Positions 5,318-32,000 of a stretch of 32,000 nt of DNA are shown one piece after another. The stretch's first letter is position 1. Each line of letters starts with the position of its first letter. The stretch spans positions 32,570-64,569 of the forward strand of contig NZ_MHZG01000015.1 of assembly GCF_001830325.1 (NCBI RefSeq), in the 5' to 3' direction. The notes under the pieces were generated by a model. That model was given only the letters and a program-made list of their open reading frames with translations. It made no database searches and was not told the origin of the DNA. Source of the stretch: Polynucleobacter sp. GWA2_45_21. Lineage in GTDB: Bacteria; Pseudomonadota; Gammaproteobacteria; Burkholderiales; Burkholderiaceae. A program made the position numbers and the translations under genes.

Positions 5318-5351
5318 AGACCTCACAAGATCAATCAAAGATAATTATCAG

Positions 5352-17555: not shown

Positions 17556-18353
17556 ATGACGCAAAATAATTCAACAGAAGATTCCGGACTACAAGAATCC
17601 TTCTTGTCACATTTATTTGAGCTGCGTGATCGCATCATCAAGTCAGCGATTGCAATTATTGTAGTTTTCGTTTCCTTAGTTTATTGGGCGCCAGATATTT
17701 TTCATTTGTTTGCCCAGCCACTGCTTCAAGCATTGCCCGCAGGCGGCAAGATGATTGTGACTGATGTGACTGGTTCATTCTTTGTGCCGATGAAGGTCAC
17801 GATGTTGGTTGCTTTCTTGATTGCTCTGCCAGTAGTGATGTATCAGTTATGGGCGTTTATTGCCCCCGGCCTTTATCAGCATGAGCGTAAGTTGATAGTG
17901 CCTTTGGTTATCAGTAGCTATAGCCTCTTTATTTTCGGGATGGCTTTTGCTTACTTCTTAGTTTTCCCAACGGTATTTCAATTCATGGCTAGCTATAACG
18001 CCCCCTTAGGCGCTGAAATGTCGACTGATATTGATAAATATCTTGGCTTTGCAATGACAACCTTTTTGGCCTTTGGCATTACCTTTGAGGTTCCGGTTGT
18101 TGTGGTGGTGCTGGTTCGCATGGGCATGGTCCAACTAGCCAAACTTAAGGAGATTCGTCCTTATGTGATTGTTGGCGCTTTTGTGATTGCAGCAATTGTG
18201 ACGCCACCAGATGTGTTGTCTCAATTACTGCTAGCTGTACCTATGTGCTTGCTTTACGAACTCGGGCTTCTGATCGCTCGTTTCTATATCCCTAAGTCGA
18301 CAGACGACGAGGCTGGCACAACAACAAACCCAGATACTCAAGCAACCGTTTGA
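17556..18353 (+). CDS. tatC: twin-arginine translocase subunit TatC
   Basis: 265 aa polytopic protein. SHLFELRDR... TatC signature, follows tatAB. Confidence 0.95.
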   Translation: MTQNNSTEDSGLQESFLSHLFELRDRIIKSAIAIIVVFVSLVYWAPDIFHLFAQPLLQALPAGGKMIVTDVTGSFFVPMKVTMLVAFLIALPVVMYQLWAFIAPGLYQHERKLIVPLVISSYSLFIFGMAFAYFLVFPTVFQFMASYNAPLGAEMSTDIDKYLGFAMTTFLAFGITFEVPVVVVVLVRMGMVQLAKLKEIRPYVIVGAFVIAAIVTPPDVLSQLLLAVPMCLLYELGLLIARFYIPKSTDDEAGTTTNPDTQATV

Positions 18354-19816
18354 TCTTGTGAGAAGGTAGTAGTCAGCCACTCAGTTACTCGATCAAATCG
18401 ATAGCGTCTTTGTCTTAAATTACCTTCTAAGTCTGATTCGCTTCCAGCAAATACTTTTCCCGCTGCAAGCAAAGAGCGACGCTGCTGTGTGGTATCAATC
18501 TGAATTAATCTAGGCAGTATCTTTGGTAGCTCGTGGCGAATATCGACAACGACACAATGTTCGTGCTGTAACTGCCCAACCTCGCACAGTAATAGCTCAG
18601 CCTTGCTCAAATTAAATTGATTGGCGATGATGAGTCGGTGACATAGCAAGATCCACTCTTCATCTAATTTGTGTTCGGCGTGATGGTTTAATGCCTTTTC
18701 AGCATAAGTAGCTAATTCAAACCAATCATTGTTCTTTGGGCTGGAGACATTCTCCAGAATTTTCCCAAGTAATTCTTTTGCTTCGGGAACGCCTTGTTGG
18801 TGTGCTTGCCAAATCCAATAAGAAGCTTGCAGGCCACGAACCTTCTCTTCAACTTTTTCGCGTTTGCGCCAGAGGTTGGCGCCTCTTTTGAATTGAGCCA
18901 CTGGATGACCTAAATCTGCCGCACGATCAAGACAGCGATCACTCTCAGCCGCGTTGTAACCAGAGAATTGCGGACGGCGGTAAATTTCACCTAAAGCAAA
19001 CCAAGCATCACGATCACCATCCTTTGCTGCAAGCTCTAACCAGTAGGCTGCTTTTTTGAGGGAGGCATTGGATTTGCTACCACTCACCCCAGTAGCATCT
19101 TTTGAAGCAGAATCAACTTCATTGAATTGCGCTAGGCGTAATCCCAGTGTCAGTTTGGCAATCGTTAGCCCAAGTTCTGCTGCTTGTATCAGTGCTGCCT
19201 CATTTTTATCAGAGAGCCAGGCATTCCAAAGTGAGGAGAGCGCTTCATCTTTTGGCTGTAGCTTAATGAGTAGTTCTTTTGCATTGTTAGTAAATGGTGT
19301 TTCAGAATCTGCCAGACCCAATAAAAACTCTTTTGCTTTCTTTTGCAGAGACAGAAAGTCATCACCACCTTTGCCTTGCTTCAAAAGCCAGTTAGAGAGC
19401 TCAGCCTGTAAGTCTTTTTTAGCGGGATTCAGTAAAAGTTCTGCAAGCTGCCATTGCGCTACGTAACTTGCATCAATATTGGCCTTAGCTAACTTCCAGA
19501 ATGATTCCCACCCAAAAGTAAATGCCGGTGAATTAAATGTTCCCTCCAGTGGAACGGTCGAGATTTGCTCCAGCATCTCCAAAATCTCTGGGGAAGAGCT
19601 ATCTAAGACAGCAATTTCAGCATCACTTGAGCTCAACTGGCTAACTAATTGATTTTGAATGGAAAAATAAGATTTTTCTAACCAAATCAGGGCATTAGCA
19701 GGCTGGATTGGGGTTTTAAAAGCACCCGTAAGATAAGCGGAGGCTAAATTTTGTTGCGCAGAAACGTCACCAATACGGGCTAATTGGAGGATTTTTAGGA
19801 ATTCACGGCTTGCCAT
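18338..19816 (-). CDS. Sel1/TPR-like repeat protein
   Basis: 492 aa. Sel1-like repeats, e.g. AAYWLELAAKDGDRDAWFALGEIY and LDRAADLGHPVAQFKRGANLW. Its 3' end overlaps the tatC 3' end by 16 nt. Confidence 0.6.
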   Translation of the reverse strand: MASREFLKILQLARIGDVSAQQNLASAYLTGAFKTPIQPANALIWLEKSYFSIQNQLVSQLSSSDAEIAVLDSSSPEILEMLEQISTVPLEGTFNSPAFTFGWESFWKLAKANIDASYVAQWQLAELLLNPAKKDLQAELSNWLLKQGKGGDDFLSLQKKAKEFLLGLADSETPFTNNAKELLIKLQPKDEALSSLWNAWLSDKNEAALIQAAELGLTIAKLTLGLRLAQFNEVDSASKDATGVSGSKSNASLKKAAYWLELAAKDGDRDAWFALGEIYRRPQFSGYNAAESDRCLDRAADLGHPVAQFKRGANLWRKREKVEEKVRGLQASYWIWQAHQQGVPEAKELLGKILENVSSPKNNDWFELATYAEKALNHHAEHKLDEEWILLCHRLIIANQFNLSKAELLLCEVGQLQHEHCVVVDIRHELPKILPRLIQIDTTQQRRSLLAAGKVFAGSESDLEGNLRQRRYRFDRVTEWLTTTFSQDQTVA

Positions 19817-20006
19817 ATGACAATTTTGGCATTCCAGGCCTTAAAAAGACAGAAATCAAAGCCCTTGTTGTCCTGATACAACGAAGAAAGCCAAAAAACT
19901 GCCTTTTGACAAGCAAAAAGAGCTCCTAAATACCCTGACCCTCAGTCTGGCAGGGCAAAACAAGCAAAATTCGTAGGTCCCAGTTTTATTTGGGCATTAC
20001 TTTCAA

Positions 20007-20110
20007 TTTATGGAGATTTAAAGAATGAAAAAATCGCTATTAGCAGTTGCAGCAATGACAGCATTTGCTGGCGCAGCTCAAGCTCAGTCATCAGTGACTG
20101 TTTACGGTAT
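20007..20110 (+). repeat. direct repeat copy 1 (porin RBS + first 86 nt of CDS), identical to 26864-26967
   Basis: Manual alignment at offset 6857 gives no mismatch over 104 nt. The first difference is at 20111 (t) versus 26968 (c). Weaker similarity extends about 10 nt further upstream with a 2-nt indel. Confidence 0.9.
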
Positions 20111-21224
20111 TTTGGATGTTGGTTATGTTGGCGGTAACGCTAAGTCAACCGCAGCTGGAAAAAACTCCGCTGAAACTGTCAGCCTCGTTGGACAGTCAGC
20201 TGAAACAAGTTCCCGTTTAGGATTTAAGGGCACTGAAGATTTGGGCGGCGGCACTTCTGCTTTCTTTACATTTGAAACAGGTTTGAGCCCTAACTCAAGC
20301 ACAGTTTCTACTTGGAATAACCGTCAAGCATTTGTTGGCTTGAAGAAGAATGGCCTTGGCGCTGCAATGATTGGTACACAGTACACCCCAATCCACACAG
20401 CAATTGGTAAAACATCTGCCGGTCAGTACAACAACATCGTTGGCGATGTAATTTACCCACAGTCTTCTGGTTTGAATGCTGCAAACGCATCCAATGCAAA
20501 CCAAAACAACATTGGTTACACCATTCGCTCTAACAACATGTTAAAGCTCGAGTCAGACACATTTGCTGGCTTTAAAGGCACAGCATTTTATGCAGCAAAC
20601 AATAAAAATGAAAACCAAGGCGCTAACACAACTACTTACGCCCTTGATCCAGCATCGTCTACACCGGCTGTTAAAGCTACAAATGTAGGCGTTGGTGGTA
20701 CAACCAACGTTACAGGTTATGGATTGGGCGTTGATTACACTTGGAAGAAATTATTGGTATCGGCTAATTACCAATCCTTCAAAAACGAAACTGACTCCAG
20801 CCTAACAGCAACTGTTGCTGGCGTGAACTCAACTGATAACCAAATGTACGCTGCTGCTGCATATGATTTCGGCATCTTGAAGGCTTTTGCACAGTACAGT
20901 AACCGTAAGATTACTTCCAACCTGAACAGCAACCAGTATTTCAAGCGCTCTGCACAGCAGATCGGTGTTCGTAGCTTCATTACACCAAAAATTGAAGGTT
21001 GGGCTTCTGTAGGTAACGGCCGCAATCAAGCGTTTGGTCTTGGCGAGCCAACAGCAAACTTTACTGGTTACCAGTTAGGTTCGAACTACTGGCTCAGCAA
21101 GCGTACAAACTTGTATGCGATTTTTGGTGCAAGCCAAACTTCAAACGTTAGCTCGATCGCAAGCTCTGCTAACAATAGCTACAATGCAAACAACTATGCT
21201 CTTGGCGTACGTCACACTTTCTAA
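20025..21224 (+). CDS. general porin, Gram-negative OmpC/Omp32-type (allele 1)
   Basis: 399 aa. Signal peptide MKKSLLAVAAMTAFAGAAQA, mature N-terminus QSSVTVYGILDVGY, alternating beta-strand pattern, C-terminal YALGVRHTF. ggag RBS. Confidence 0.9.
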   Translation: MKKSLLAVAAMTAFAGAAQAQSSVTVYGILDVGYVGGNAKSTAAGKNSAETVSLVGQSAETSSRLGFKGTEDLGGGTSAFFTFETGLSPNSSTVSTWNNRQAFVGLKKNGLGAAMIGTQYTPIHTAIGKTSAGQYNNIVGDVIYPQSSGLNAANASNANQNNIGYTIRSNNMLKLESDTFAGFKGTAFYAANNKNENQGANTTTYALDPASSTPAVKATNVGVGGTTNVTGYGLGVDYTWKKLLVSANYQSFKNETDSSLTATVAGVNSTDNQMYAAAAYDFGILKAFAQYSNRKITSNLNSNQYFKRSAQQIGVRSFITPKIEGWASVGNGRNQAFGLGEPTANFTGYQLGSNYWLSKRTNLYAIFGASQTSNVSSIASSANNSYNANNYALGVRHTF

Positions 21225-21303
21225 TTGGATGCTAGCTTAGGCTAGTTGATAATTAGTTTGGCATCACTTAACCCACTGTGGCAACACAGTGGGTTTTTTC
21301 TTT
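21195..21303 (+). repeat. imperfect direct repeat copy 1 (porin 3' end + terminator), similar to 28078-28190
   Basis: gctcttggcgtacgtcacactttctaatt...gctagcttaggctagtt...attagtttggcatca...aacccactgtgg(c/t)aacacagtgggtttttt is shared with scattered mismatches and small indels. Confidence 0.8.
21270..21300 (+). terminator. rho-independent terminator of porin 1
   Basis: 11-bp stem aacccactgtg / cacagtgggtt, loop gcaa, followed by a T-tract. Confidence 0.8.
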
Positions 21304-21313
21304 ACAGAACTCA

Positions 21314-21475
21314 CTACACGCTAGCAACTTTACTTCGCTGTTGATTAAGTTTGACCTGTTGTTGACGGATACGTTCTTGCTTTACACGCTGTTGTGCTTG
21401 CCGAACCTGTGCTTGCATAGTTTTGATACGCTGCTGCTCTGGTGTTGGCGGTTTAATCACTTCTGAGATGCGCAT
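21314..21475 (-). CDS. small Gln/Arg-rich hypothetical protein (island trio protein C)
   Basis: 53 aa from ATG 21475 (MRISEVIKPPTPEQQR...). GGAG lies 7 nt upstream, and the gene starts 1 nt after the protein B stop. The same position is occupied by an ATG at 31996 in island 2. Confidence 0.5.
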   Translation of the reverse strand: MRISEVIKPPTPEQQRIKTMQAQVRQAQQRVKQERIRQQQVKLNQQRSKVASV

Positions 21476-21476
21476 G

Positions 21477-21620
21477 TTAGATCTCCGCAGGAATGCTGAT
21501 GACATTACCTGCACCAAATAGTGCTTGCAGTATTTTCGTGGCGAACGTGGTGTTTTCTGCATACACCACAGTGGTTACTACAACACCGCTTGCTCTCACA
21601 GTTGCACGAAATTGTTTCAT
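21477..21620 (-). CDS. 47-aa conserved hypothetical protein (island trio protein B)
   Basis: MKQFRATVRASGVVVTTVVYAENTTFATKILQALFGAGNVISIPAEI has the same length as 31850-31993 (MKQFRATVRASGIVVTTIVYADNVNFAIKLLQAQFGASNVISIPAQV). By eye, many nucleotide differences are synonymous or conservative, as expected for real coding sequence. Confidence 0.6.
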   Translation of the reverse strand: MKQFRATVRASGVVVTTVVYAENTTFATKILQALFGAGNVISIPAEI

Positions 21621-21759
21621 AACAATATTTATTGTGTTGTTGTTTGCTGATGTGCACACAACGCGAAAGCATCTTGGCATAGTGTCTCGTCTTTAAAACC
21701 GGGGTTCTTGTCAGCGCACTAGATAATTGCAAAACCCAGTGAATTCAGCAAGATTTCAG

Positions 21760-22206
21760 TCATTTCGCAAACCCCGCACGCAGTTTTGTTGCAGCAGCAT
21801 CAATTTGTGTATCTAGTTCACCAGCAAGTACAGCAGTTTTAATTGCATCTAGTGTGGCAGTTAAATCTTTAGCTTGTGCCACTTCCACTGCAAATTTGCC
21901 ACGTGCAAGTTCCAATACGCGACTACCGTAACGCACGCTAATTGCCAACTTTCCAGTCTGTGTTGTAAACCACCACGGTTTGACGGTGACATGTTGTTCG
22001 ATTTGTTTGCGTAAGCCAGTTTCCGTGTCTGTGTACGACTTGAACTTGGCAACACGGAACTGCATACCTTGTTCCTCCGCTTTAGCCAATTCAATCTGTT
22101 GCCAAACCCGTTTTGCCAGTTTGTTTCTGCGTTGTACCACTTGCGGAATTTGTTGCGGTTTGCGTGCATCTGTTAGTTTTAATGCTGAAAGTGCGGATGT
22201 TGTCAT
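21760..22206 (-). CDS. 148-aa conserved hypothetical protein (island trio protein A)
   Basis: AAGGAG RBS. Colinear homolog of 31365-31805, with roughly half the residues identical by eye (LKLT..KP..IP..V.RRNKL...W.QI.LAK, ETGLR.Q, WWF, AGELD.QI). Confidence 0.7.
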   Translation of the reverse strand: MTTSALSALKLTDARKPQQIPQVVQRRNKLAKRVWQQIELAKAEEQGMQFRVAKFKSYTDTETGLRKQIEQHVTVKPWWFTTQTGKLAISVRYGSRVLELARGKFAVEVAQAKDLTATLDAIKTAVLAGELDTQIDAAATKLRAGFAK

Positions 22207-22282
22207 GATGTCAGCTCCTTTAGTTATGTTGACAGCACAACTGTATTTTCGGATTAGTGCATTGCGCGACCGAAATCTGCTT

Positions 22283-22306
22283 GATCACATCAATTTGCCC
22301 AAAATC
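22283..22306 (-). promoter_or_regulatory. conserved block upstream of protein A gene (contains ATTTG-GG-CAAAT inverted repeat)
   Basis: The reverse complement reads gattttgggcaaattgatgtgatcaa. It matches 31274-31299 (aatttgggcaaattgaggtcgaccaa) in an otherwise diverged intergenic region. Confidence 0.4.
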
Positions 22307-22357
22307 TTCTAAAACCACCTAATAACGCATCACATTTAATGAGCTAATGTTTGGTCA

Positions 22358-22735
22358 GTGCTAAATACTTGCATGGATGATTTAACTTACACGCTAAACG
22401 CACGTACCCATAAAGATACCGCTAAAACGGATATATGGATTGCACAGCAACACATCACTGCCAAGCAATTTATGGATGCGGATGTGCAAACCTGCTTGTT
22501 GCAAGCGCAGAAAATGGCACGTATTACCATTCAGCACCACGCACGCTATCTATGTACGTACAACACCACGGTATTAAATGGGTTTTTACAGAAAATGGCA
22601 TTTGGCAAGTCGCGCAGCAAACTGCGTGAGCAACATGCCCGTGCTGTATTTCGGATATGCGCACAGGTTAACCGTAAGTTATATCAAACAGCAGATAGAC
22701 GCTGCACAAAGAAAGGTCAAAAAACCAGTTTGTAA
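22358..22735 (+). CDS. hypothetical protein (weak call)
   Basis: 125-aa ORF with a GTG start (ATG 5 codons in), no clear RBS and no recognisable motif. Divergent from protein A1. Confidence 0.3.
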   Translation: MLNTCMDDLTYTLNARTHKDTAKTDIWIAQQHITAKQFMDADVQTCLLQAQKMARITIQHHARYLCTYNTTVLNGFLQKMAFGKSRSKLREQHARAVFRICAQVNRKLYQTADRRCTKKGQKTSL

Positions 22736-23551
22736 TATAACGGCTAATGAGACTGGGCTTGTTGCATCAACACAGTAGATTGCGGTGCAACGCATAAGCA
22801 GATAATGCCATGGGTTAAGCAGTTCCCGTTCATACGCAAACCAATGCGTGTAATGGGTTGGGAGTTTCAAACATCTTTCTCCCGTAAAAACCAATCTACT
22901 GTGTGTGCAGGGACTTTTTACCGTCAAGCACCATGCAACGACTAATAGCGACAGAGTATTTCTCCGCTATAGCCGTTGTATGACTAGAACATTCTCCGTC
23001 AAGCTAACTGCACCAAAAGCAACTGCGTTGCTTTCGGCTTTCTTTTATCATGTGATAAATTATTCACAGAAAACGGTGTGAGCGAAAACGAAGTTTTTGC
23101 GAAACACAAGCAAACGCAGTTTGCTTTCACACTACCAGTTAGATGTAATTCACCAATACTACAGGTCTACTACACCTGCGAAAACTACAGTACAAAAATA
23201 CAGGGCTACGAACTGATTTTGGGCAGCACTACGCAGCAACACCTCAAAACACCTGCACACACGCAGATCGGGGCGGTAAACAACGCAATACCAGCAAGAA
23301 TACGTGCACACGCTACAGCGTTATTTTGATGTGTTGCATGTGCTGTCGTCTAAATGCCACGAATAAAACACCTGTGCATGTAAATTTGCGCTAAATACAT
23401 GACCAAATAGAATGCACAAACTCTTTGGTCAGTGGCATAAGTAACTGTTTTATATAGAAACGCATGACATACAACCCATATACATGTTCAGGTTGCTCTG
23501 CTAGCGCATAAGAATACATACTAAAAACGCACACATTATTTGGAGAAACCC

Positions 23552-24151
23552 ATGGCACAAGCAAAATCACTGACACAGCACGATATTGATGCAGTTTTAA
23601 ATTACATCACTACACGTACATACGCAACCCGCAACCGATTGATGTTTTTGTTTACGGTCTTAGCGGGGCTTCGCGTGTCTGAAGTCGCGCAATTAACGGT
23701 AGGGGATGTGCGCAATACCGATGGCAGTATTAAAACGCAGGTGTTCTTGTCCGCGCAGCGTGTCAAGCATGGACATGCACGCACGGTGTTTGTCAGTACG
23801 CAGTTGCAGCGTGAACTTAGTCTGTACTTAACAGCACGCATCTATGCGCAGGGTGATATTGGTGATGACATGCCACTATTTCATACGCTACGTGGTATTC
23901 GTAATGCATTTACTGCTTCCACACTGACCCAGCACTTTCATTACTTGTACCGTCGTGCACGGGTATTTGGTGCTAGCAGCCATTCGGGTAGACGCACATT
24001 CATTACTAACTTGAGTAATTCAGGCATCAGTGTGTTTGTACTTGCCAGTTTGGCAGGACACAAGAACATTGCGACTACTAACCGTTATGTTACGGTAAAT
24101 GACGAGCAAAAAAGACGTGCCGTAGACTGCTTTAGTTTGCAGGTAGCTTAA
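23552..24151 (+). CDS. small tyrosine recombinase, catalytic domain only (island 1)
   Basis: 199 aa from ATG 23552 (ggag RBS). Full R-K-H-R-H-Y set: GLRVSE, VKHGHARTV, SHSGRR, GHKNI, NRY. Homolog of 29712-30281. Confidence 0.85.
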   Translation: MAQAKSLTQHDIDAVLNYITTRTYATRNRLMFLFTVLAGLRVSEVAQLTVGDVRNTDGSIKTQVFLSAQRVKHGHARTVFVSTQLQRELSLYLTARIYAQGDIGDDMPLFHTLRGIRNAFTASTLTQHFHYLYRRARVFGASSHSGRRTFITNLSNSGISVFVLASLAGHKNIATTNRYVTVNDEQKRRAVDCFSLQVA

Positions 24152-24982
24152 TTAACTACGTAACTTGTGTTGTGCAAGTCGTTCTTTGAGCATTTCACCA
24201 GAACGCTCCAAACCATGATCATTAGCATCTACAATGTGTTCTTGACTGTACAGTAACTCCAGCGCAACTTGCACCAATGCTTCGCGTTGTCGCCAATATT
24301 GCCGCAGTCGCTGACCAACTGCAGGTGCAACAGACATCTGTGCGAATTTACTTTTGCTCCCACGAATGCGCGGAACACCTGTAATACAAGCATCAGGCTC
24401 AAAACCAAGTTCACAATTGACGTCACGATCTAACCAACGTTGTATTTCATGTGATTGTTGTACATCAGGCATGGGATTACGCAGTGGGTTGGTGTCAATT
24501 GCATTGGTAAGTAACATAACTGCTTCTTCGTAACAAGACTCTGCTTTTGTTTCCATGCGCTGAAATGCTGTTTTGCCATTAGCGTCCCGTTTAATAGAAC
24601 GACGAAACAAGTTGGCAAGACGAGTATATTTGTCACCGTCTTTTACATACTGCATGTAATCATACAAAACACTGGGCATGCTTTCTGTTGCGGTCCAATG
24701 ACTTTCTACATGTGAAATATCCCAGTCGTAGCTTTGCACGTATTCCAAGTAACGCTCTTTTCCCAATGCCGCAAGCATTTTTTGTTTTGGCACAGCACGC
24801 TGTGCAATCACAGATACCAGTGCAGCTTTGATTAAGCGTAATGATGCGTACTCCGTATCATTGATTAGGCGAAATGGAAGATCACGCAACGCATTGTAAG
24901 TAAGTTGATGTATGTACTGGCTATCATCAATGCTGCTACTGCATTTGATGGCGCGTAAGTCAAACAACACAGCGTACTGCAA
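24152..24982 (-). CDS. hypothetical protein, 276 aa
   Basis: Long ORF with a TTG start, 19 nt downstream of the H-NS-like gene in the same orientation as integrase 1. No motif recognised. Confidence 0.5.
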   Translation of the reverse strand: MQYAVLFDLRAIKCSSSIDDSQYIHQLTYNALRDLPFRLINDTEYASLRLIKAALVSVIAQRAVPKQKMLAALGKERYLEYVQSYDWDISHVESHWTATESMPSVLYDYMQYVKDGDKYTRLANLFRRSIKRDANGKTAFQRMETKAESCYEEAVMLLTNAIDTNPLRNPMPDVQQSHEIQRWLDRDVNCELGFEPDACITGVPRIRGSKSKFAQMSVAPAVGQRLRQYWRQREALVQVALELLYSQEHIVDANDHGLERSGEMLKERLAQHKLRS

Positions 24983-25001
24983 TGTACGCTGTGCATGCTG
25001 T

Positions 25002-25259
25002 TTAAACTTTTCTGCGTCGACTAGTGCTTTTGCGGGGTGCAGAACGTGATGATTTGGCTTTCATGACGCTGCGCAAGTCAGTTGCACTAAAACTGTGCGT
25101 TGTAATCAATCTTTTCACGGTTGCCAAATCTTCTTCACGTGTTTGCGTCAACAATGCTTCAATCTTTGCATTGAGTTCGGCTTGTGCCTTTTGTGCTGCT
25201 GCTAATTGGTCGCTAGCAGATTGCGAAGACGAAGTCATTTCAGTCATATCATTTCCCAT
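25002..25259 (-). CDS. small H-NS N-terminal-domain-like protein with basic tail (no C-terminal DNA-binding domain)
   Basis: 85 aa. The coiled-coil-like AAQKAQAELNAKIEALLTQTREEDLATVKRLITTHSFSATDL resembles oligomerisation regions of betaproteobacterial H-NS-like proteins. It ends in KSSRSAPRKSTSRRRKV. Confidence 0.4.
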   Translation of the reverse strand: MGNDMTEMTSSSQSASDQLAAAQKAQAELNAKIEALLTQTREEDLATVKRLITTHSFSATDLRSVMKAKSSRSAPRKSTSRRRKV

Positions 25260-25343
25260 TTAGTTACTGATAACAGAATTATTATCAATACTAGAAAATA
25301 TAAATTAAATCTTAACAAGTGTAATAGGTACATACGCTATGAT

Positions 25344-26645
25344 TTATCTTCTGCTGTGCAACATACCCACATTCATTTCTGGTGTAAGTTGACTGGCATA
25401 AAATCGTTCGATCATTTCCACGCTTGTACGTGCATTACGCGCCAGTGTCAGTAAATCAATTCCACGTCCGTATAACAACCTATATGTAATTGCTGTGTGT
25501 CGTAACGAATACAATGTGCGTCGCTGTCCAAGTGCGCCAAATCGTAATCCTGTTGCAAGCAGTATCTTTACAAAATACTTGTCAATCAATTGCATTGCAG
25601 CAGCACGGTCTTTAATCTGCGGTAAAAACAAATAGTCATCTGCAGTTGCCAAACCTTGCTGGTCGTAATAACTACGCAGATGTTCATATATGCGTACAGC
25701 AGGTTGCAATGTAATAACTGGTGCAGAGTGACGCTTGGTTTCAGGAATGGTTAAACGCAAGTAGATGTGACCATTACGTATCACTTCAATATGCTTGTGT
25801 TGCATTAGTTTCATATCAACTGGTCGTACAAAGCTGTTGACCATAAAACCAATTAACCAAGTCATTTCACGTGGAATGTTAGCGTCTGGTGCAAACAGAT
25901 TATTGTGTTTGGTACGATGAGTAACTTTAATTGGTGCACACACTTGATTTGCTAATACTTTACTGGCACGAAGTAATGCACGGTATTCAACAACACTAAA
26001 TCCACCACGTGGCGTACTAGATGATTTAAGTTTGGGGAAGGTTGGGACTTTTTCAATCCAGCCGTGTTTAAATGCGCACTCTAATACTTTGTGTAGTGCA
26101 TTCAAGTACTGCGTAATTGTCATTGACTTGTACTGCTTGTCACTTAGAAAGTACAAGAAGCGTTCTATGTCTGTGTGTTTAATGTCAGTTACTTGCACAG
26201 AGCCAAAGTACGGCAATACCCATTTGCGTATGCGTGACACCAGCATTACATAGGTGCCATTTGTAATCTCGTCACGTTTCACGCGTGCCGTTTCATTTGC
26301 AAGCATGATGTTGGTAACGGTGTTGACTGATAAATCTTGTGTATTTGCAACAGCACCTTGTGCAATTACGCCTGTGTCTATTAAATGCTGTTCATAAAAC
26401 AATTTAGCCAGTTGCAAAGCGTGTCGCTTGCTGGTTGTGCGCAAACTACGTATCACTGTCTTGTTATCAAAATAACAGCGCACTTGCCAGTAGCTACTTG
26501 CATTGGTCAAAAAGATACGTAATTTGTTTGGATAGCTGGGTACATATGTAATGGTGTGCAAGATTGGAAGCGTGCGACAACGTTTTGCGTAAAAGAATTC
26601 GTCGTTTGCCGATTTGGATTGCATATCGCAAGCGTACTGTCGCAC
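25344..26645 (-). CDS. tyrosine integrase (island 1)
   Basis: 433 aa (GTG 26645; alternative ATG 26624). Its C-terminal two thirds are colinear with 28266-29369 (GWIE..P.FPK, FVRPVD, ETKRH, TLYSLRHTAIT, LLTLARNARTSVEMIE.FY). Confidence 0.85.
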   Translation of the reverse strand: MRQYACDMQSKSANDEFFYAKRCRTLPILHTITYVPSYPNKLRIFLTNASSYWQVRCYFDNKTVIRSLRTTSKRHALQLAKLFYEQHLIDTGVIAQGAVANTQDLSVNTVTNIMLANETARVKRDEITNGTYVMLVSRIRKWVLPYFGSVQVTDIKHTDIERFLYFLSDKQYKSMTITQYLNALHKVLECAFKHGWIEKVPTFPKLKSSSTPRGGFSVVEYRALLRASKVLANQVCAPIKVTHRTKHNNLFAPDANIPREMTWLIGFMVNSFVRPVDMKLMQHKHIEVIRNGHIYLRLTIPETKRHSAPVITLQPAVRIYEHLRSYYDQQGLATADDYLFLPQIKDRAAAMQLIDKYFVKILLATGLRFGALGQRRTLYSLRHTAITYRLLYGRGIDLLTLARNARTSVEMIERFYASQLTPEMNVGMLHSRR

Positions 26646-26763
26646 ACCAAGTTATGCGACCAGTATATTTTTTGCAGATTTGCTTTTATCAAAACTCTGC
26701 CATTCCCAATCCATTTACCACTGTTAGAAAAAGTAAGCACGTTTTAGATAAACGTTTGCACTT

Positions 26764-26789
26764 TGTCGCACAGTCCCCAGTGTGCGACA
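26764..26789 (+). repeat. palindrome TGTCGCACA-N8-TGTGCGACA at the integrase-proximal end of island 1
   Basis: 9-bp arms at 26764-26772 and 26781-26789. Further half-sites at 26572-26579 (gtgcgaca) and 26638-26646 (tgtcgcaca, overlapping the int start). Confidence 0.6.
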
Positions 26790-26863
26790 GCGACACTCAC
26801 TTGTATAAGCAAGTAATGCGGTTTTAATGGAGCAAGTTAGTGATGCGCACATTCTTGTCAATT

Positions 26864-26967
26864 TTTATGGAGATTTAAAGAATGAAAAAATCGCTATTAG
26901 CAGTTGCAGCAATGACAGCATTTGCTGGCGCAGCTCAAGCTCAGTCATCAGTGACTGTTTACGGTAT
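26864..26967 (+). repeat. direct repeat copy 2, identical to 20007-20110
   Basis: See copy 1. Confidence 0.9.
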
Positions 26968-28108
26968 CTTGGACGTTGGTTACATTGGCACAAACTTGCG
27001 TGTTCCACAAACAGCTGCCCCTTTGACGGCAGTCCCTGCGTACAAGCTTACTCAAAATGCTTTCGGTCAATCTGCTGAGACAACATCACGTCTTGGTTTT
27101 AAGGGTACAGAAGACTTGGGCGGCGGTATGAATGCCTTCTTCACAGCTGAATTTCAATTGTTCCCACAAGATTGGAGTCTTTCAGGTTCTTCAGCATCTG
27201 CTTTGGGAACAGGTACATCTGCTAACCCAGCAGGCGGCCTACAAAACCGTCAAAGTTTCGTTGGTTTGAGCAAAAAAGGTCTCGGTCAAGCAGCGATTGG
27301 TACACAGTACACTCCAATCCACGTTGCTGTTGGCAAGACTGACCCAGGTCAACAAAACAATATGATCGGTAGCGTTATCTACCCAGCAAACGGCTCTGGC
27401 TTCACAACAGGTGCTTACACAGTTCGTTCAAACAATGCCTTGACTGCTGCAACCGATACATTCTCTGGCTTTAAATTGTCAGCAATGTATGCAATGAACA
27501 ATCAAGATCGCACACAGTTGGCTAATGGTGGAGCTACTGCTGCTGCAACAAACGGCGGTAATACCAATTCAAATGGCTGGGGTCTTGGTGCTGATTACAC
27601 TTGGAAAAAATTGTTTGTAACTGCAAACTATCAGTCATTCAAAAACGAAACTAATAGCACTACAGCTGCATTGCCAGCAGCGACAACTGGTAACGTAAAC
27701 GGTCAAAATATTACCGATAACCAAATGTATGTTGGTACAACTTATGACTTTGGTATTTTGAAGGCCTATGCTGGTTGGACAAGTCGTAAAGCAACATCTG
27801 GCTTAGACTCTAATAACTATGCCAAACGCTCTGGTCAGCAGATTGGTGTACGTAGCTTCATTACACCTAAGATTGAGGGTTGGGCAAACGTTGGTAATGG
27901 CCGTTTCACTTCATATGGTACCGGCTCCCCAACAGCAAACTTCACTGCCTATCAGTTGGGTGCAAATTACTGGTTGAGCAAGCGTACTAATTTGTACACA
28001 ATCTTCGGATCAACACAAACTAGTTCAAGCGCTGCAACAACAGCACTCCCAGGTGGTACTGCTGGTGGTGGTAATCAATACGCTCTTGGCGTACGTCACA
28101 CTTTCTAA
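26882..28108 (+). CDS. general porin, Gram-negative OmpC/Omp32-type (allele 2)
   Basis: 408 aa. Same signal peptide and first beta-strand as allele 1, conserved strand blocks (SRLGFKGTEDLGGG, IGTQYTPIH, DYTWKK, QQIGVRSFITPKIEGWA, NYWLSKRTNLY, YALGVRHTF), and divergent segments between them. Confidence 0.9.
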   Translation: MKKSLLAVAAMTAFAGAAQAQSSVTVYGILDVGYIGTNLRVPQTAAPLTAVPAYKLTQNAFGQSAETTSRLGFKGTEDLGGGMNAFFTAEFQLFPQDWSLSGSSASALGTGTSANPAGGLQNRQSFVGLSKKGLGQAAIGTQYTPIHVAVGKTDPGQQNNMIGSVIYPANGSGFTTGAYTVRSNNALTAATDTFSGFKLSAMYAMNNQDRTQLANGGATAAATNGGNTNSNGWGLGADYTWKKLFVTANYQSFKNETNSTTAALPAATTGNVNGQNITDNQMYVGTTYDFGILKAYAGWTSRKATSGLDSNNYAKRSGQQIGVRSFITPKIEGWANVGNGRFTSYGTGSPTANFTAYQLGANYWLSKRTNLYTIFGSTQTSSSAATTALPGGTAGGGNQYALGVRHTF

Positions 28109-28190
28109 TTTCTTGCTAGCTTAGGCTAGTTACGAATTAGTTTGGCATCAAATTAACCCACTGTGGTAACACAGTGGGTTTTTTTCTTTT
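28078..28190 (+). repeat. imperfect direct repeat copy 2 (porin 3' end + terminator)
   Basis: See 21195-21303. Confidence 0.8.
28155..28186 (+). terminator. rho-independent terminator of porin 2
   Basis: Stem aacccactgtg / cacagtgggtt, loop gtaa, T-tract. Confidence 0.8.
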
Positions 28191-28265
28191 CTAAAGTTTG
28201 ATTGTTCTCTTACAACTTTTTTGCTATACACATTAATTCTTTTAATTCAGATTTAAGGAAATTTA

Positions 28266-29369
28266 ATGTCCTCTAGTTTTTACGCGCGTGAAGCTGCAAA
28301 CGATAGTTTCATAGTCAATCTTGAAAATCAGTCTGAACTTAAATTGGAGGTTAGTATCAAACAAGGGGAAATAAATTTTTCTCAGGTAATAGCTATTGCA
28401 ACTGAAAAGGAGGAACAAAAGCAGAGATGCGGAGAAATAACTAAGCAAACTTTGAGTATGTTTCATAGCAGGGTCAATTCAAATATCTCAGAATACTTTG
28501 GACTACTAAAGACATCAGACATTACATCTAAGGTGATACTTGGATTTATTGAATTTTTAAGTGATAAATCAATTAAGGCAGTAACAATTAATCAATATTT
28601 GGGACTTTTAAAGAGGCTGTTAACCATTGCGGTATTAGAGGGCTGGATAGAGGGTTTGCCTGTATTTCCGAAAGTTAGAAGCAAGAGCATCCCAAGAGCT
28701 AGCCTTTCTATTGATGAGTACTTAGAAGTCTTACGTTGCGCTAAAAATATGTCTCGTCCCAAGATATCGACACAAGATTCTCATAGGAATATTGTCAATG
28801 GCTTCTACGTAAAGGATGCTCCAATTCCCAAAGAAATGGTCTGGTTAATTGGCTTCATGACTAATACATTCCTCCGTCCTGTAGATATGAAATTACTACA
28901 GCATAAGCATATAAAGATTGTAGAAGGCAAAAATCGATATCTTAAAATTAGTCTTCCTGAAACAAAGCGTCATACTGGTCAGGTAATATCTCTTAGGGCT
29001 GCCGTAAGAATATACAGGGAGTTGAGAGAGAATGACTATAAGCATGGGTTTGGTAATACTAATGATTACGTCTTTCTTCCCCAAATTAAAAATCGTGAAG
29101 TTGCAATCCAAGCAATTTCATTCCTATTTAGAAGAATCTTACTTAAGGCTAAGTTGGAATCTAGTAGCGATGGTCAAAAAAGAACGCTTTACTCTCTTAG
29201 GCATACTGCAATTACATTCAGACTAATATATGGGCAAGGAATTGATCTATTAACCCTAGCTCGAAATGCTAGAACTTCTGTAGAGATGATTGAGAAGTTT
29301 TATTCATCTAACCTCAAGGCAGAAATGAATGTTGATATGCTACAAAGCAAGAGAACAAAGCTTGGCTAA
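28266..29369 (+). CDS. tyrosine integrase (island 2)
   Basis: 367 aa with an aagga RBS. Catalytic region homologous to integrase 1, N-terminal ~100 aa unrelated by eye. Confidence 0.85.
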   Translation: MSSSFYAREAANDSFIVNLENQSELKLEVSIKQGEINFSQVIAIATEKEEQKQRCGEITKQTLSMFHSRVNSNISEYFGLLKTSDITSKVILGFIEFLSDKSIKAVTINQYLGLLKRLLTIAVLEGWIEGLPVFPKVRSKSIPRASLSIDEYLEVLRCAKNMSRPKISTQDSHRNIVNGFYVKDAPIPKEMVWLIGFMTNTFLRPVDMKLLQHKHIKIVEGKNRYLKISLPETKRHTGQVISLRAAVRIYRELRENDYKHGFGNTNDYVFLPQIKNREVAIQAISFLFRRILLKAKLESSSDGQKRTLYSLRHTAITFRLIYGQGIDLLTLARNARTSVEMIEKFYSSNLKAEMNVDMLQSKRTKLG

Positions 29370-29380
29370 ATTTTTTTCAC

Positions 29381-29399
29381 TGTCGTGTTCAACACGACA
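29381..29399 (+). repeat. palindrome TGTCGTGTT-C-AACACGACA
   Basis: 9-bp arms, 12 nt after the int2 stop, with no 3' T-tract. Same design as 30350-30368 and 31813-31837. Confidence 0.7.
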
Positions 29400-29711
29400 C
29401 CACGGCCCCTAAAAGTTCACCTCAAAAACCGTCTATGCGCTGTATGTTTGGCGCGCCAAATAGCTGTGCATCAGAGAGCCCCTGTTTTAAGCTTGTAGCT
29501 TGGATTTGAGGTGTTTGGGCAATTCCGTCGTCTTTATCCCACGAATGACATAAATACATTTAGCCCCACCAAAGATTATTGCTATTTTCTTTGGCGGAGC
29601 TAAATGCTAAGTCATTGATTCTTGGAAAGATTATTGATCACCCATTTTGGTCGTCCTTTGGAGCAAAAGAATACAAACTGCATACACAGTTTTATTTATC
29701 TAAAGGAAAAA

Positions 29712-30281
29712 ATGGCTCAAGCAAAAACACTCACCACAAATGAATTAGAACAAGTCTTACGCTACATCAGCAGCACAACTTATGCAGAACGCAATCGCGT
29801 AATGTTGCTCATGGGATATTGGGCGGGACTTCGCGTTAAAGAAATTGCCCAATTAAAAATGGGGGATGTATTAAATGACGATGGCACGATTAAAAGCGAA
29901 ATTCGTTTAAGTGCACAGCAAACTAAAGGGAATGACGGCAGAACGGTGTTCTTGCCAGTAAAGTTAAAAGAAGAATTGGCTGTGTATCTCAAAACTCGCC
30001 ATATCACCATGCCTGATATTCCCTTGTTCCACACATCCAAGCGTTTGGGCTGGACGCCTAATACCTTATGCCAGCACTTCTTTTGGCTTTATAAGCGAGC
30101 GGGTATTGCGGGTGCTAGTAGCCATAGTGGTCGTAGGCAATTTATTACGACCTTGGCAAATAAGGGCATCTCTGTGCGTATTTTGGCTAGCTTGGCGGGG
30201 CATAAGAGTATTGCGGTAACGCAAAAATATATCGATGTGAACGATGATATGAAAAGAGCGGCCGTGGAGTTGGTGGCGTAG
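29712..30281 (+). CDS. small tyrosine recombinase, catalytic domain only (island 2)
   Basis: 189 aa from ATG 29712 (aaagga RBS). GLRVKE, TKGNDGRTV, SHSGRR, GHKSI, QKY. The ORF-track TTG 29622 extension is not supported. Confidence 0.85.
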   Translation: MAQAKTLTTNELEQVLRYISSTTYAERNRVMLLMGYWAGLRVKEIAQLKMGDVLNDDGTIKSEIRLSAQQTKGNDGRTVFLPVKLKEELAVYLKTRHITMPDIPLFHTSKRLGWTPNTLCQHFFWLYKRAGIAGASSHSGRRQFITTLANKGISVRILASLAGHKSIAVTQKYIDVNDDMKRAAVELVA

Positions 30282-30349
30282 TGCGTTCTAAATGGAACAC
30301 ATTAACCCAGCGTCCAATAACGAGACGCTTACCAAATCAGGTATGGTGT

Positions 30350-30368
30350 TTGTCGGGTTACCCGACAA
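30350..30368 (+). repeat. palindrome TTGTCGGGT-T-ACCCGACAA
   Basis: 9-bp arms, about 70 nt after the small recombinase 2 stop. Shares the TGTCG...CGACA design. Confidence 0.6.
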
Positions 30369-30460
30369 GCTAGGTGTCTGGGGGCAAATTGCCAAGTGTC
30401 CTGTTTCGCGACGGTGCCTATTTAATGAGCACCGCTACTGGAAGTAACACGCATTAATGG

Positions 30461-30489
30461 CAAAAGAGTTGTTCCATTTGGAACAACTC
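30461..30489 (-). terminator. candidate rho-independent terminator of the 149-aa orphan gene
   Basis: 10-bp stem gagttgttcc / ggaacaactc, 4-nt loop. On the minus strand it is followed by cttttgcc. Confidence 0.55.
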
Positions 30490-30508
30490 ATCTTATCCCC
30501 TACGGGTT

Positions 30509-30958
30509 CTAATGCAAATCCACATTAGTAGCAATAAACACAGGCTTATTAGTGCCCGTTGCTTTGCAGTTGTGCACATTTAAAGTCCACTCATCTTGGG
30601 TTTGATTTGTGGGATCATCAATCGCAATATGGAGCTCCTTGCTATTGGGTGCATAAATGCAGTATCCGTTCGCCGGGGTTTTGGTTTTGCTCAGTGGCTC
30701 ATAGTGCAATAACCACGATAGCAAAATACCTGCTTGGGCTTGAATGCCTGCCCCCACTAACTTTGTGACGGTGTCCATTTGGACATCGGATTTGGCTAAG
30801 TGTTCCCAGTGATCAAAGGTGTAAAAATCCACTAAGTATTTTTGACTTGGACTGGCCAATTCCACGGAGCCATTAAAAACGGCTCGTCTAAATAATCCCT
30901 GACCAAAGCTCGTATTGAACTTTTCATTGGCAAATCCTCGAATGGCTATTTCTCTCAT
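30509..30958 (-). CDS. hypothetical protein, 149 aa
   Basis: ATG 30958 (MREIAIRGFANEKF...) is preceded by AAGGAG. The longer ORF-track start at 31039 has no RBS. No motif recognised. Confidence 0.55.
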   Translation of the reverse strand: MREIAIRGFANEKFNTSFGQGLFRRAVFNGSVELASPSQKYLVDFYTFDHWEHLAKSDVQMDTVTKLVGAGIQAQAGILLSWLLHYEPLSKTKTPANGYCIYAPNSKELHIAIDDPTNQTQDEWTLNVHNCKATGTNKPVFIATNVDLH

Positions 30959-30989
30959 ATCGTTCTCCTTTATATAAATTGATTGAGTT

Positions 30990-31125
30990 CTCACGCAGTT
31001 GCTAGTTAGTGGAGTTAGTTGCCAAAGAAGAGATCTCAAAAGATCAGTTGCTATGAGTGGGGTTGCTTTCCCAAAGGGAGAGTCACGCAGTAGCGTTGCT
31101 AGTCAGAGTAAGTCATTTGCTACTA
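30990..31125 (+). repeat. iteron-like cluster of GTTGCTA(GT)/TCACGCAGT motifs
   Basis: tcacgcagttgctagt (30991-31006), agttgcc (31017-31023), cagttgctatgagt (31045-31058), ggttgcttt (31061-31069), tcacgcagtagcgttgctagt (31083-31103), catttgctact (31114-31124). Confidence 0.55.
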
Positions 31126-31273
31126 CCAGTAACGACTCAACTCAAACACTCGAACTCCACTTACTCATGCAACTGTTTTTCTTTAAGCGACCTTACTTTT
31201 GTAACCAAGCAACTCGCAAAAATATTTATGCCTGCTAAACAAAAACAAACAAAAATAATGGCGATATTTGGTG

Positions 31274-31299
31274 AATTTGGGCAAATTGAGGTCGACCAA
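31274..31299 (+). promoter_or_regulatory. conserved block upstream of protein A gene (ATTTG-GG-CAAAT)
   Basis: Counterpart of 22283-22306. Confidence 0.4.
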
Positions 31300-31364
31300 A
31301 CCGCAAATCAGGTAATAAATTAAATGTGCCCATTAACAAACTAAACCCAAACAAGGAGAATTAA

Positions 31365-31805
31365 ATGAGCGCATTGGAATCACTCAAGCTAACAACAGCA
31401 AAAAAACCCACCCATATCCCTGCAATTGTATTTCGCAGAAATAAGTTATCAAGCAAACTGTGGGAGCAAATCCAGTTAGCCAAAAGTCAAATAGATGGCA
31501 CGCCATTTGTTGTGACCAAGTTCAAAAGCGTTAAAGATAAAGAAACTGGTTTGCGTCGCCAAGTAGAAGTGCCAAAGCGCATAAGAGAATGGTGGTTTAA
31601 GAACGAGCAAGGCAAGGTCTGTTTATCAGTCAAATACGGCACCAAGGTCATTGAGCTAGCCAAAGGCAAACACAGCATAGAAGTGGATAGTGCTCAAAAC
31701 TTGGTTAAAGCATTGGAAACCATCAAATCGGCCGTTGAAGCTGGCGAACTAGATAGTCAAATTGAATTGGCTAGTGGAGCATTAAAGCTTGGGTTTAAGA
31801 AGTAA
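31365..31805 (+). CDS. 146-aa conserved hypothetical protein (island trio protein A)
   Basis: AAGGAG RBS. Homolog of 21760-22206. Confidence 0.7.
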   Translation: MSALESLKLTTAKKPTHIPAIVFRRNKLSSKLWEQIQLAKSQIDGTPFVVTKFKSVKDKETGLRRQVEVPKRIREWWFKNEQGKVCLSVKYGTKVIELAKGKHSIEVDSAQNLVKALETIKSAVEAGELDSQIELASGALKLGFKK

Positions 31806-31812
31806 GGCCCTG

Positions 31813-31837
31813 GGGTGTCGTGTTAATCACGACACCC
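31813..31837 (+). repeat. palindrome GGGTGTCGTG-TTAAT-CACGACACCC
   Basis: 10-bp arms, 8 nt after the protein A2 stop, with no T-tract. Confidence 0.7.
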
Positions 31838-31849
31838 ATAAATAACTAT

Positions 31850-31993
31850 ATGAAACAATTTCGCGCAACTGTTAGAGCAAGTGGGATAGTGGTTACAACC
31901 ATCGTCTACGCTGATAACGTTAACTTCGCTATCAAACTGCTTCAAGCCCAATTTGGCGCCTCGAATGTGATCAGCATTCCAGCGCAGGTCTAG
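31850..31993 (+). CDS. 47-aa conserved hypothetical protein (island trio protein B)
   Basis: Below the ORF-track size cut-off and found by homology to 21477-21620. ATG 31850, TAG 31991-31993. Confidence 0.6.
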   Translation: MKQFRATVRASGIVVTTIVYADNVNFAIKLLQAQFGASNVISIPAQV

Positions 31994-31995
31994 CC

Positions 31996-32000
31996 ATGAA
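31996..32000 (+). CDS. start of the third trio gene (protein C), truncated by the window edge
   Basis: ATG lies 2 nt after the protein B stop, mirroring the B1/C1 junction. Only 5 nt are visible. Confidence 0.25.

Follow-up and report, generated by a model that had tools for sequence, protein, structure and literature searches.

The 32,000-nucleotide (nt) stretch of Polynucleobacter sp. GWA2_45_21 contig NZ_MHZG01000015.1 analysed here (hereafter, the window) is a genomic-island hot spot that borders on the his operon, tatABC, and a Sel1-repeat gene. It probably carries two diverged members of one family of small site-specific integrative elements, inserted at the two ends of a single porin gene (porin 2), with island 1 on the 5′ side and island 2 on the 3′ side. 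We also lean towards a mechanism in which the integrases catalyse crossover within the conserved end segments of the porin gene; island 1 would thereby have brought in a second porin (porin 1) and displaced porin 2, and island 2 would have entered at the porin 2 terminator. Positions below are those of the window, and comparison loci are labelled by L-numbers (L001 etc.), among which L007 is a Logan contig of 5.4 kilobases (kb).

Porin 2 (26882–28108, plus strand, 408 aa) is flanked by both integrases, which abut it and read outward: integrase 1 (25344–26645, minus strand, 433 aa), a large tyrosine recombinase, and integrase 2 (28266–29369, plus strand, 367 aa), from a different clade of the same integrase family. 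This mirror arrangement, pointed out in the first-pass annotation, and the gene order given there were confirmed by the coordinates of the open reading frames (ORFs). From integrase 1 leftward, island 1 holds an 85-aa cargo ORF (25002–25259) and a 276-aa cargo ORF (24152–24982), both on the minus strand, small tyrosine recombinase 1 (23540–24151, plus strand; catalytic domain only, ~200 aa), a 1.3-kb stretch (22207–23539), and, on the minus strand, A1 (21760–22206; a DUF6641 protein of 148 aa), B1 (21477–21620; 47 aa), and C1 (21314–21475; a small basic coiled-coil protein, 53 aa from an internal ATG). Beyond C1 lies porin 1 (20025–21224, plus strand; 399 aa, Porin_4 family), adjoined by the Sel1-repeat gene (18338–19816, minus strand, 492 aa). 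From integrase 2 rightward, island 2 holds small tyrosine recombinase 2 (29622–30281, plus strand; 189 aa from the ATG at 29712, a gene call taken from L007), a minus-strand cargo ORF (30509–31039; 149 aa as 30509–30958, or 176 aa from an upstream TTG), and, on the plus strand, A2 (31365–31805; a DUF6641 protein of 146 aa), B2 (31850–31993; 47 aa), and C2, which starts at the window end and is completed in L007 (31996–32163 in window numbering).

The homologous pairs proposed earlier were recovered, with 49% protein identity between the integrases (E 2e-115), 54% between the small recombinases, and 52% between A1 and A2; the B genes are 73% identical at the nt level and form an inverted repeat of 155 nt. 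Such likeness between the islands lies far beyond chance, and identities of 49–54% rule out a recent duplication. An assembly artefact had likewise been discounted in the first-pass annotation, and the same sequence, porin 2 through C2, stands unchanged in L007, an independent Logan assembly. The AT-richness ascribed to island 2 was confirmed in its overall GC content (0.405, compared with 0.43 in island 1 and 0.46 in the core), but it derives mostly from the integrase 2 gene (0.36). Closer relatives of each island were found in other genomes. Integrase 1 and the 85-aa ORF have 97% and 100% identical copies in L001, respectively, and the 276-aa ORF, which travels with integrase 1, is 88% identical in L001 and 83% in L012. 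A1 and porin 1 are 99% and 96% identical in L008, where porin 1, C-B-A, and o125 (a small ORF in the 1.3-kb stretch) form one 93.5% block in common with the window. Island 2 matches L042 in a small recombinase 2 block (89% nt identity) and an A2 block (83%). These relatives indicate that the two islands assort independently, and the separate occurrence of near-identical parts of each island in L001, L008, and L042 agrees with the independent insertions suggested previously.

The element family was surveyed with A as the anchor in one genome per species and with the integrase as the anchor in metagenomes. The gene set (large integrase, ~200-aa recombinase, A, B, and C) recurs in more than 60 loci of Polynucleobacter, Limnohabitans, and other Burkholderiales; the single family with a co-occurring gene set that had been postulated was thus borne out by 26 genome loci anchored on A and by many of the 79 metagenome loci anchored on the integrase. 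With A on the plus strand, the canonical order is integrase+, cargo+, small recombinase−, o125−, A+, B+, C+, which was found in several Polynucleobacter species, two Limnohabitans contigs, Comamonadaceae, and metagenome-assembled genomes (MAGs) of other Burkholderiales. Extended by a porin, as integrase+, cargo, small recombinase−, (o125−), A+, B+, C+, porin−, it is kept in L001, L003, L009, L010, L012, and others. In some genera the elements lie in tRNA genes, and three such relatives were delimited: a 10.8-kb element in tRNA-Phe with direct repeats of 45 nt (L013), a 6.4-kb element in tRNA-Lys with repeats of 50 nt (L014), and an 8.0-kb element in tRNA-Met with repeats of 53 nt (L016). The repeats are perfect copies of the 3′ part of the tRNA gene, and the integrase lies 114–127 nt from the tRNA. 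These tRNA-derived repeats establish the family as a true site-specific integrative element, whose two ends are the integrase and the A-B-C operon. Overall, the family comprises small (about 4–11 kb) integrative elements with a large integrase facing inward from one end, variable cargo in the middle, and a conserved module at the other end. In this module, a recombinase with a catalytic domain only is accompanied by a small helical ORF (or another ORF in its position), a structured non-coding element, and, divergently oriented, the A-B-C operon.

The porin genes carry near-identical ends, which had been missed in the first-pass annotation. The ORF of porin 2 (PF13609, E 2.4e-40) is intact, and its product shares its signal peptide with porin 1; the two proteins are 56% identical. 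Their plus-strand 5′ conserved segments (copy 1, 20007–20132, −18 to +108 of porin 1; copy 2, 26864–26989) form a direct repeat (D1) of 126 nt with 97% identity, comprise the ribosome-binding site and the first ~36 codons, and are proposed as the left and right attachment-site-like (att-like) repeats of the island 1 unit, respectively. The 3′ conserved segments, also on the plus strand, lie at 21195–21303 (copy 1) and 28079–28189 (copy 2), with terminator hairpins at 21270–21295 and 28155–28180, respectively, both from a terminator scan. Including the terminator, they are 90–97% identical over ~105 nt (repeats D6 and D10), and copy 2 is the proposed attL of island 2. Among residues identical between the two porins, the codon is also identical for 30 of 33 within the first 36 codons and 8 of 9 within the last ten, compared with 100 of 203 in the gene body, which indicates that the ends of the gene are constrained at the nt level. 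In 22 porin copies with at least five unrelated upstream flanks, the invariant block starts at one nucleotide (AT/GGAGATTTAAAGAATG, the slash marking its start). The terminator hairpin CACTG-N-CACAGTG recurs at the porin terminators of many loci, and within 1 Mb of related loci it is otherwise almost confined to porin terminators.

Different integrase clades appear to be tied to these two conserved ends of the major porin gene in Polynucleobacter. Among all integrase copies with enough upstream sequence, the upstream neighbour was a divergent porin in 24 loci (and in 5 more detected only by the 5′ segment), a co-directional porin in 7 loci (and in 3 more with the porin further upstream), and a same-strand tRNA in 4 loci. 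Clade-1 integrases always adjoin a porin 5′ end in the loci surveyed, and the integrase 2 clade is found at 3′ terminators, in line with the earlier proposal of one insertion per end of porin 2. Both integrases match the phrog_1 integrase (E 1e-23 and 2e-21) and gave no match to Pfam PF00589; integrase 1 has SAM-like N-terminal domains. The catalytic positions R204, K234, R312-H313, and Y346 are invariant in 15 homologues. A sequence search of PDB with integrase 1 returned no match, and integrase relatives in IMG/VR were only distant (28–34% identical).

Island 1 has the orientation of the usual modules at this site. In other genomes, the porin/Sel1/tatCBA/his site holds one to three same-orientation modules, each then followed by a porin (L001, L003, L009, L010, and L012; two modules and part of a third in L001). 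Because such same-orientation tandems are usual, the mirror arrangement in the window is an exception, as the first-pass annotation had remarked. The repeating unit consists of a porin body, C-B-A, the small recombinase, and the integrase between 126-nt 5′ segments, and an integrase of the island 1 clade adjoins the conserved porin 5′ segment in all five locus families examined in detail. Insertion/deletion polymorphism at the 5′ segments was observed. Blocks that are 98–99.8% identical between L001 and L003, L001 and L010, and L003 and L010 end inside the porin 5′ segment, and a block of L001 that is 83.9% identical to window positions 22684–26978 stops inside copy 2 of that segment. Furthermore, two 5′ segments in L003 enclose a unit of 6.4 kb (porin body, C, A, small recombinase, cargo, and integrase) where L004 has one 5′ segment only, with the Sel1-gene flank 99.2% identical; these are metagenomes of the same lake series, and this occupied/empty pair concerns a relative rather than either island of the window. 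Inheritance of the module includes the porin convergent with C-B-A and does not include the integrase-side porin. Because of this co-inheritance, the composition of the unit, and the occupied/empty pair, porin 1 most likely arrived with island 1. We conclude that the two 5′ segments are the better limits of island 1, so that the predicted unit would span 20007–26989 and include the porin 1 body, a refinement of those proposed earlier; porin 2 would then be the resident, or earlier, allele. Integrase 1 lies 218 nt from the 5′ segment. The bounds of island 1 are marked by target-derived direct repeats (126 nt, 97%), and a search for short att repeats shared by the porin 1 terminator region and the sequence upstream of integrase 1 found none, which is consistent with the view that the porin ends are the repeats.

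Island 2 appears to be a second type of element and not a flipped copy of island 1. The nearest relatives of integrase 2 are 66–68% identical and lie on short contigs, also after a porin: L034 has the order porin+, integrase+, small recombinase+, cargo−, and L035 begins at the porin terminator and continues in the same order, so that the junction between the 3′ segment and an integrase-2-like gene is present in L034, L035, and the window. Small recombinase 2 is on the integrase strand, unlike its counterpart in island 1, and the same holds in L034–L036, L042, and L047; this difference in orientation is a lineage feature, and no convincing inverted repeats that would explain the flipped small recombinase 2 were found. 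L042 and L047 share the internal order of island 2, combined there with a clade-1 integrase and canonical flanks. Island 2 is without o125 and X1, a non-coding element of island 1 described below, and the 149-aa ORF, divergent from A2, sits where island 1 has o125; relatives of this ORF (33–58% identical) occur in L042, L047, L076, L084, L088, and L105, and it has no family match. A derivation of island 2 from island 1 by in-situ inversion or duplication was rejected on the divergence of the islands and the recurrence of the junction elsewhere. The first-pass annotation had held that sequence to the right of position 32000 was needed to see the full island. L007 completed C2 and runs 170 nt past it into the 3′ end of a minus-strand tRNA-Thr gene, but it reaches only to ~32337, and the end of island 2 beyond C2 is only a candidate: a 16-nt match to the terminator hairpin core near 32228–32243 is a candidate attR. 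A tRNA-Thr repeat at the near or far end of island 2 was not supported, the local alignment being no better than that of shuffles.

Other family integrases lie co-directionally after a porin in L040, L045, L046, L058, L062, L067, and L080. Solo intact integrases stand right after a porin in L046 (6767–9083), L058 (57–2537), and L045 (467–3301) without other element genes, and only a few nucleotides separate them from the core genes that come next, among them an amino-acid ABC transporter. In L036, a 72-aa lipoprotein gene (784–1002; signal peptide and lipobox-like LSAC) lies between the porin terminator and the integrase-2-like gene.

The palindrome TGTCGTG-N5-CACGACA occurs twice in the window (0.06 copies expected), just past the stop of integrase 2 (copy 1, 29381–29399) and just past that of A2 (copy 2, 31816–31834), and the flanks of the two copies form a 30-nt inverted repeat framing small recombinase 2 through A2. 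About 30 copies with invariant arms follow integrase or A stops in related loci (L001, L003, L010, L034–L036, L038, L039, L042, L047, and L048). In L042, which has four exact copies and one with a single arm mismatch, the mosaic blocks with island 2 start and end at palindromes, and the 83% A2 block ends at copy 2. The palindrome could be a protein-binding or recombination site.

Under the proposed mechanism, the mobile unit of island 1 would comprise the porin body and terminator, C-B-A, the small recombinase, cargo, and the integrase. A crossover within the 5′ segment would set the incoming porin 1 behind the native upstream region and push the resident porin 2 to the integrase side of island 1, and repeated integration at the 5′ segment would yield same-orientation arrays such as those in other genomes. 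The integrase of island 2 would dock after the porin terminator and read away from it like a classic integrase from a tRNA gene. With one clade at the porin 5′ end, another at the 3′ end, and each integrase next to its docking segment, a mirror image around porin 2 would result. The integrases, rather than RecA, would be the crossover catalysts, and the exchange might have a consequence for porin expression.

Several observations weigh against this reading. Crossover in 110–140 nt of near-identical sequence could be RecA-mediated; mosaic breakpoints lie inside modules and inside porin bodies, which means that homologous exchange operates here as well; neighbouring core segments have opposite orientations in different genomes, so that rearrangements without these att sites also occur at the locus; and the 5′ segment ends sharply upstream at the Shine-Dalgarno position in the ribosome-binding site, an edge that may therefore reflect function and not a recombination junction. 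In addition, the 3′-segment repeat is absent at the far end of island 2 as far as ~32337 (local alignment no better than shuffles), intact solo integrases by porins with core genes next to them (L046, L058, and L040) misfit a simple element model, and no circular junction or excision product was among the observations. The first four of these points speak for a cassette locus maintained by homologous recombination, in which the porin ends would be anchors for RecA-dependent exchange after DNA uptake, the integrases would be relics, and the mirror arrangement would have come about through homologous or illegitimate events. We consider this unlikely, since the integrase clade is strictly coupled to the porin end, though the porins are only 25–60% identical, the distance of 77–218 nt between integrase and segment matches that in the tRNA relatives with true att repeats, and the integrase ORFs are intact with their catalytic residues kept.

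The solo integrases leave room for a host-side role. Resident integrases, perhaps together with the small recombinases, might constitute a host-domesticated porin switch that captures, inverts, or exchanges porin units in an integron- or shufflon-like manner and changes the expressed allele. Such a switch would accommodate the intact integrases that directly follow porins and precede core genes (in L045 as well as the three loci above), the arrays with several intact, diverged porin genes, the occurrence of the element body in either orientation relative to the integrase depending on lineage, and the palindromes at mosaic boundaries. It nevertheless seems quite improbable, because no locus pair carried the same sequence in both orientations, the differences being only between diverged lineages, and the element is also found in tRNA genes without any porin. 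Moreover, the small recombinase scored far below the cut-offs of integron-integrase models (16–30 bits, cut-offs 265–435) and invertase models (19–38 bits, cut-offs ~221), and nothing in a promoter scan separated expressed from silent porin copies; the scan returned 14 sites against 24.3 expected from shuffled sequence and was uninformative for the expression of porin 1 versus porin 2. As for island 2 being an inverted copy of island 1, through local duplication, inversion, and divergence or through misassembly, the islands are indeed homologous and mirrored, they border on assembly-breaking repeats, and the contigs end ~170 nt past C2. We regard this origin as extremely improbable given the low protein identity, the greater closeness of each island to relatives in other genomes than to its neighbour, the recurrence of the island 2 junction and internal order in the independent metagenomes L034 and L035, and the exact agreement with the Logan assembly. 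Insertion of two diverged members of one integrative element family at the two ends of porin 2 is the reading preferred here.

The 1.3-kb stretch between A1 and small recombinase 1 had been taken as non-coding, which proved incorrect: it contains the conserved ORF o125 together with conserved structured non-coding blocks (X1 and X2). The o125 ORF (22358–22735, plus strand; likely start, the ATG at 22373) encodes a small helical protein, whose homologues in 14 loci all lie between A and the small recombinase, and which has 10 database homologues; it has no family match, and its structure model is of low confidence (predicted local distance difference test score, pLDDT, 57). X1 (22688–22807, plus strand), just 3′ of o125, comprises three stem-loops, for which RNAalifold gave 24 pairs, 13 of them with compensatory changes. 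Pairing was seen in 96% of cells, compared with at most 43% when slid, and none of 500 shuffles reached the value of X1. The X1 covariance model (R1) found 25 loci, always between o125 and the small recombinase and on their strand, with an invariant 32-nt core (CCAGTTTGTAATATRACGGCTAATGAGACTGG). X1 had no Rfam match, and an Rfam scan at E ≤ 1 over 19800–32000 gave only chance matches; X1 is accordingly put forward as a candidate new structured RNA. X2 (about 23075–23135, plus strand) is conserved in about 12 loci, with an optional inner hairpin, a covarying hairpin, and a T-rich tail, and AAGCAAAC/GTTTGCTT alternate with AAGCGAAC/GTTCGCTT in its alignment. X2 may terminate the o125-X1 transcript or a small RNA.

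Both small recombinases belong to PF00589 (E 1e-22 for small recombinase 1), and the gene is present in most loci of the family. The best PDB relatives of small recombinase 1 are XerC-like, XerA, and XerD proteins, and no NCBIfam subfamily cut-off is reached, those of the invertases and integron integrases included. A1 matches PF20346 (DUF6641; E 5e-11, 43.2 bits with a gathering cut-off of 27) and phrog_31551 (E 7e-23). The A protein has 2070 homologues, mostly in Polynucleobacter, with 80–93% identity in P. sphagniphilus, P. paneuropaeus, and related genomes and MAGs. Its AlphaFold model (pLDDT 81) consists of a helix, a five-stranded sheet, and then helices, and had no Foldseek match in PDB or BFVD at E ≤ 0.001; at the sequence level, A had no match in PDB, no tblastn match in 50,697 phage records, no relatives in IMG/VR, and only weak partial tblastn matches on 6 plasmids in a plasmid collection. 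B1 weakly matches phrog_28551, and B follows A in many loci. C1 is one of 18 clustered ORFs from different loci, all placed behind A and B, and has no Pfam match. The small recombinase and A, B, and C probably act in excision or regulation, and we infer from the arrangement of the genes that o125, X1, and the small recombinase, set against A-B-C, may form a divergent control and excision module.

Neither the 276-aa nor the 85-aa cargo ORF has a family match in Pfam or NCBIfam, and the same was true of the 276-aa ORF in PHROG and PADLOC. The label "H-NS-like" given to the 85-aa ORF in the first-pass annotation was not upheld, as no Pfam match was obtained even at E ≤ 5. In L013, L015, L022, L023, and L027, the cargo includes a recurrent three-gene set of an RFC-like AAA+ ATPase (PF00004, KYRPQTIDDF motif) and two unassigned ORFs, and other cargo in these regions comprises a beta-lactamase-fold protein and a hydrolase. 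Distant DUF6641 homologues (33–37%) lie directly upstream of a 437-aa integrase in the marine Rhodobacterales Pelagimonas (L031) and Sulfitobacter (L032); the link between A and the integrase thus extends beyond Betaproteobacteria. In P. rarus (L025, 9602–10080), the C-terminal part of a porin gene, still followed by its terminator, has become fused to a truncated A gene in antisense; it is a deletion remnant and shows the decay of an older tandem array. The second copy of the terminator hairpin in L025 was considered as an att site and rejected, since it is the 3′ end of the truncated porin.

The left 20 kb of the window is core chromosome, with his genes, tatABC, and the Sel1-repeat gene, and the window contains no tRNA genes. 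The N-terminal part of the Sel1-repeat gene and the intergenic region are conserved (82–94% nt identity), and its central part is poorly conserved across genomes. On the right, the tRNA-Thr(TGT) 3′ end lies on the minus strand at 5348–5384 of L007 (approximately window positions 32300–32337), ~140 nt past C2. In L040, tRNA-Thr(TGT) (3400–3475) and then cytochrome bc1 genes come right after the porin-adjacent solo integrase, and in L033 (tRNA at 4951–5026) this tRNA-Thr/cytochrome bc1 core segment is turned the other way round with respect to the porin, which indicates an inversion of several kb adjoining the hot spot. L009 and L005 likewise differ by a rearrangement at this hot spot: relative to the mscL and protease genes, a block comprising the ABC transporter, porins, and the element is inverted in L009.

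With regard to known systems, the family is a kind of additive tRNA-type genomic island with tandem accretion. It shares with such islands an integrase that sits at one terminus and faces inward, direct att repeats, cargo that varies, and same-orientation arrays at a single hot spot. It differs in docking at the two ends of a protein-coding porin gene in Polynucleobacter, in that the unit of one clade carries a whole replacement porin, and in its conserved second small recombinase and A-B-C/o125/X1 module, with no mobilisation, replication, or packaging genes recognised. The prophages e14 and phage 21 integrate into icd and carry a replacement 3′ end of the gene. As in these cases, the element copy of the target segment keeps the gene intact and duplicated gene ends mark the junctions; here, however, a complete alternative allele appears to stand behind the resident 5′ end with the old allele intact downstream, and the islands are without phage structural genes. 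As suspected in the first-pass annotation, no described integrative and conjugative element (ICE), integrative and mobilisable element (IME), phage-inducible chromosomal island (PICI), GInt, integron, or prophage architecture fits the family, and neither does a defence island. PHROG matches among the island proteins were limited to the integrases and families of unknown function, with no phage satellite or prophage genes; Pfam and NCBIfam gave no relaxase or type IV secretion domains, an unrecognised origin of transfer being possible; PADLOC gave no defence-system matches; and there was no attC-like array, TGTCGTG-N5-CACGACA being a different motif.

Tycheposons, which occur in Prochlorococcus and further members of the streamlined plankton, are recognised by an integrase specific to their lineage together with shared hallmark genes, among them excisionase and primase/helicase. 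Like the present family, they are small cargo elements of planktonic bacteria with streamlined genomes, they pair an integrase that faces inward from one terminus with a small conserved module at the opposite one, their integrase clades are specific for particular sites, and their tandem arrays form islands (bioRxiv 10.1101/2020.12.28.424599). The targets here include a porin gene, and it is by the hallmark genes and the target that the family is set apart; no Pfam, NCBIfam, or PHROG match to a tycheposon hallmark gene was found in either island, and an RFC-like AAA ATPase was present only in the cargo of some relatives. GInts, in which a ginABCD operon at one end comprises three consecutive tyrosine recombinases and ginD, are likewise site-specific islands with more than one tyrosine recombinase and offer a precedent for unrelated elements at either end of a gene, as unrelated GInts insert at the beginning or end of ssb, with 5′-end insertions compensated by an outward promoter (PMC5385486). 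The present family differs in having two recombinases, far apart and usually on opposite strands, and no equivalent of ginC or ginD. The literature search turned up no publication on DUF6641 or on porin-linked islands in Polynucleobacter.

Polynucleobacter and Limnohabitans rank among the commonest bacteria of fresh water, and gene gain and exchange in their streamlined genomes are poorly understood. An abundant, unannotated element family, with thousands of DUF6641 and integrase homologues in lake metagenomes, would provide a concrete vehicle for gene exchange, and the locus offers testable att sites, a two-recombinase system, an orphan fold (DUF6641), and a structured RNA candidate. We tentatively suggest, while holding it to be more doubtful than the insertions themselves, that a previously undescribed element family uses the ends of the major porin gene as attachment sites and that one of its clades installs its own porin behind the native signals and archives the old allele downstream. 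If so, arrays of intact porin variants would be built in one of the most abundant freshwater bacteria through element-driven replacement of a cell-surface receptor that phages or grazers are likely to target; capture platforms might be provided by resident solo integrases, and the new structured RNA would be part of the control region of the element. If the expressed porin allele is swapped in this way, mobile DNA would be linked to variation in a major surface protein, to phage and predator pressure, and to strain coexistence.

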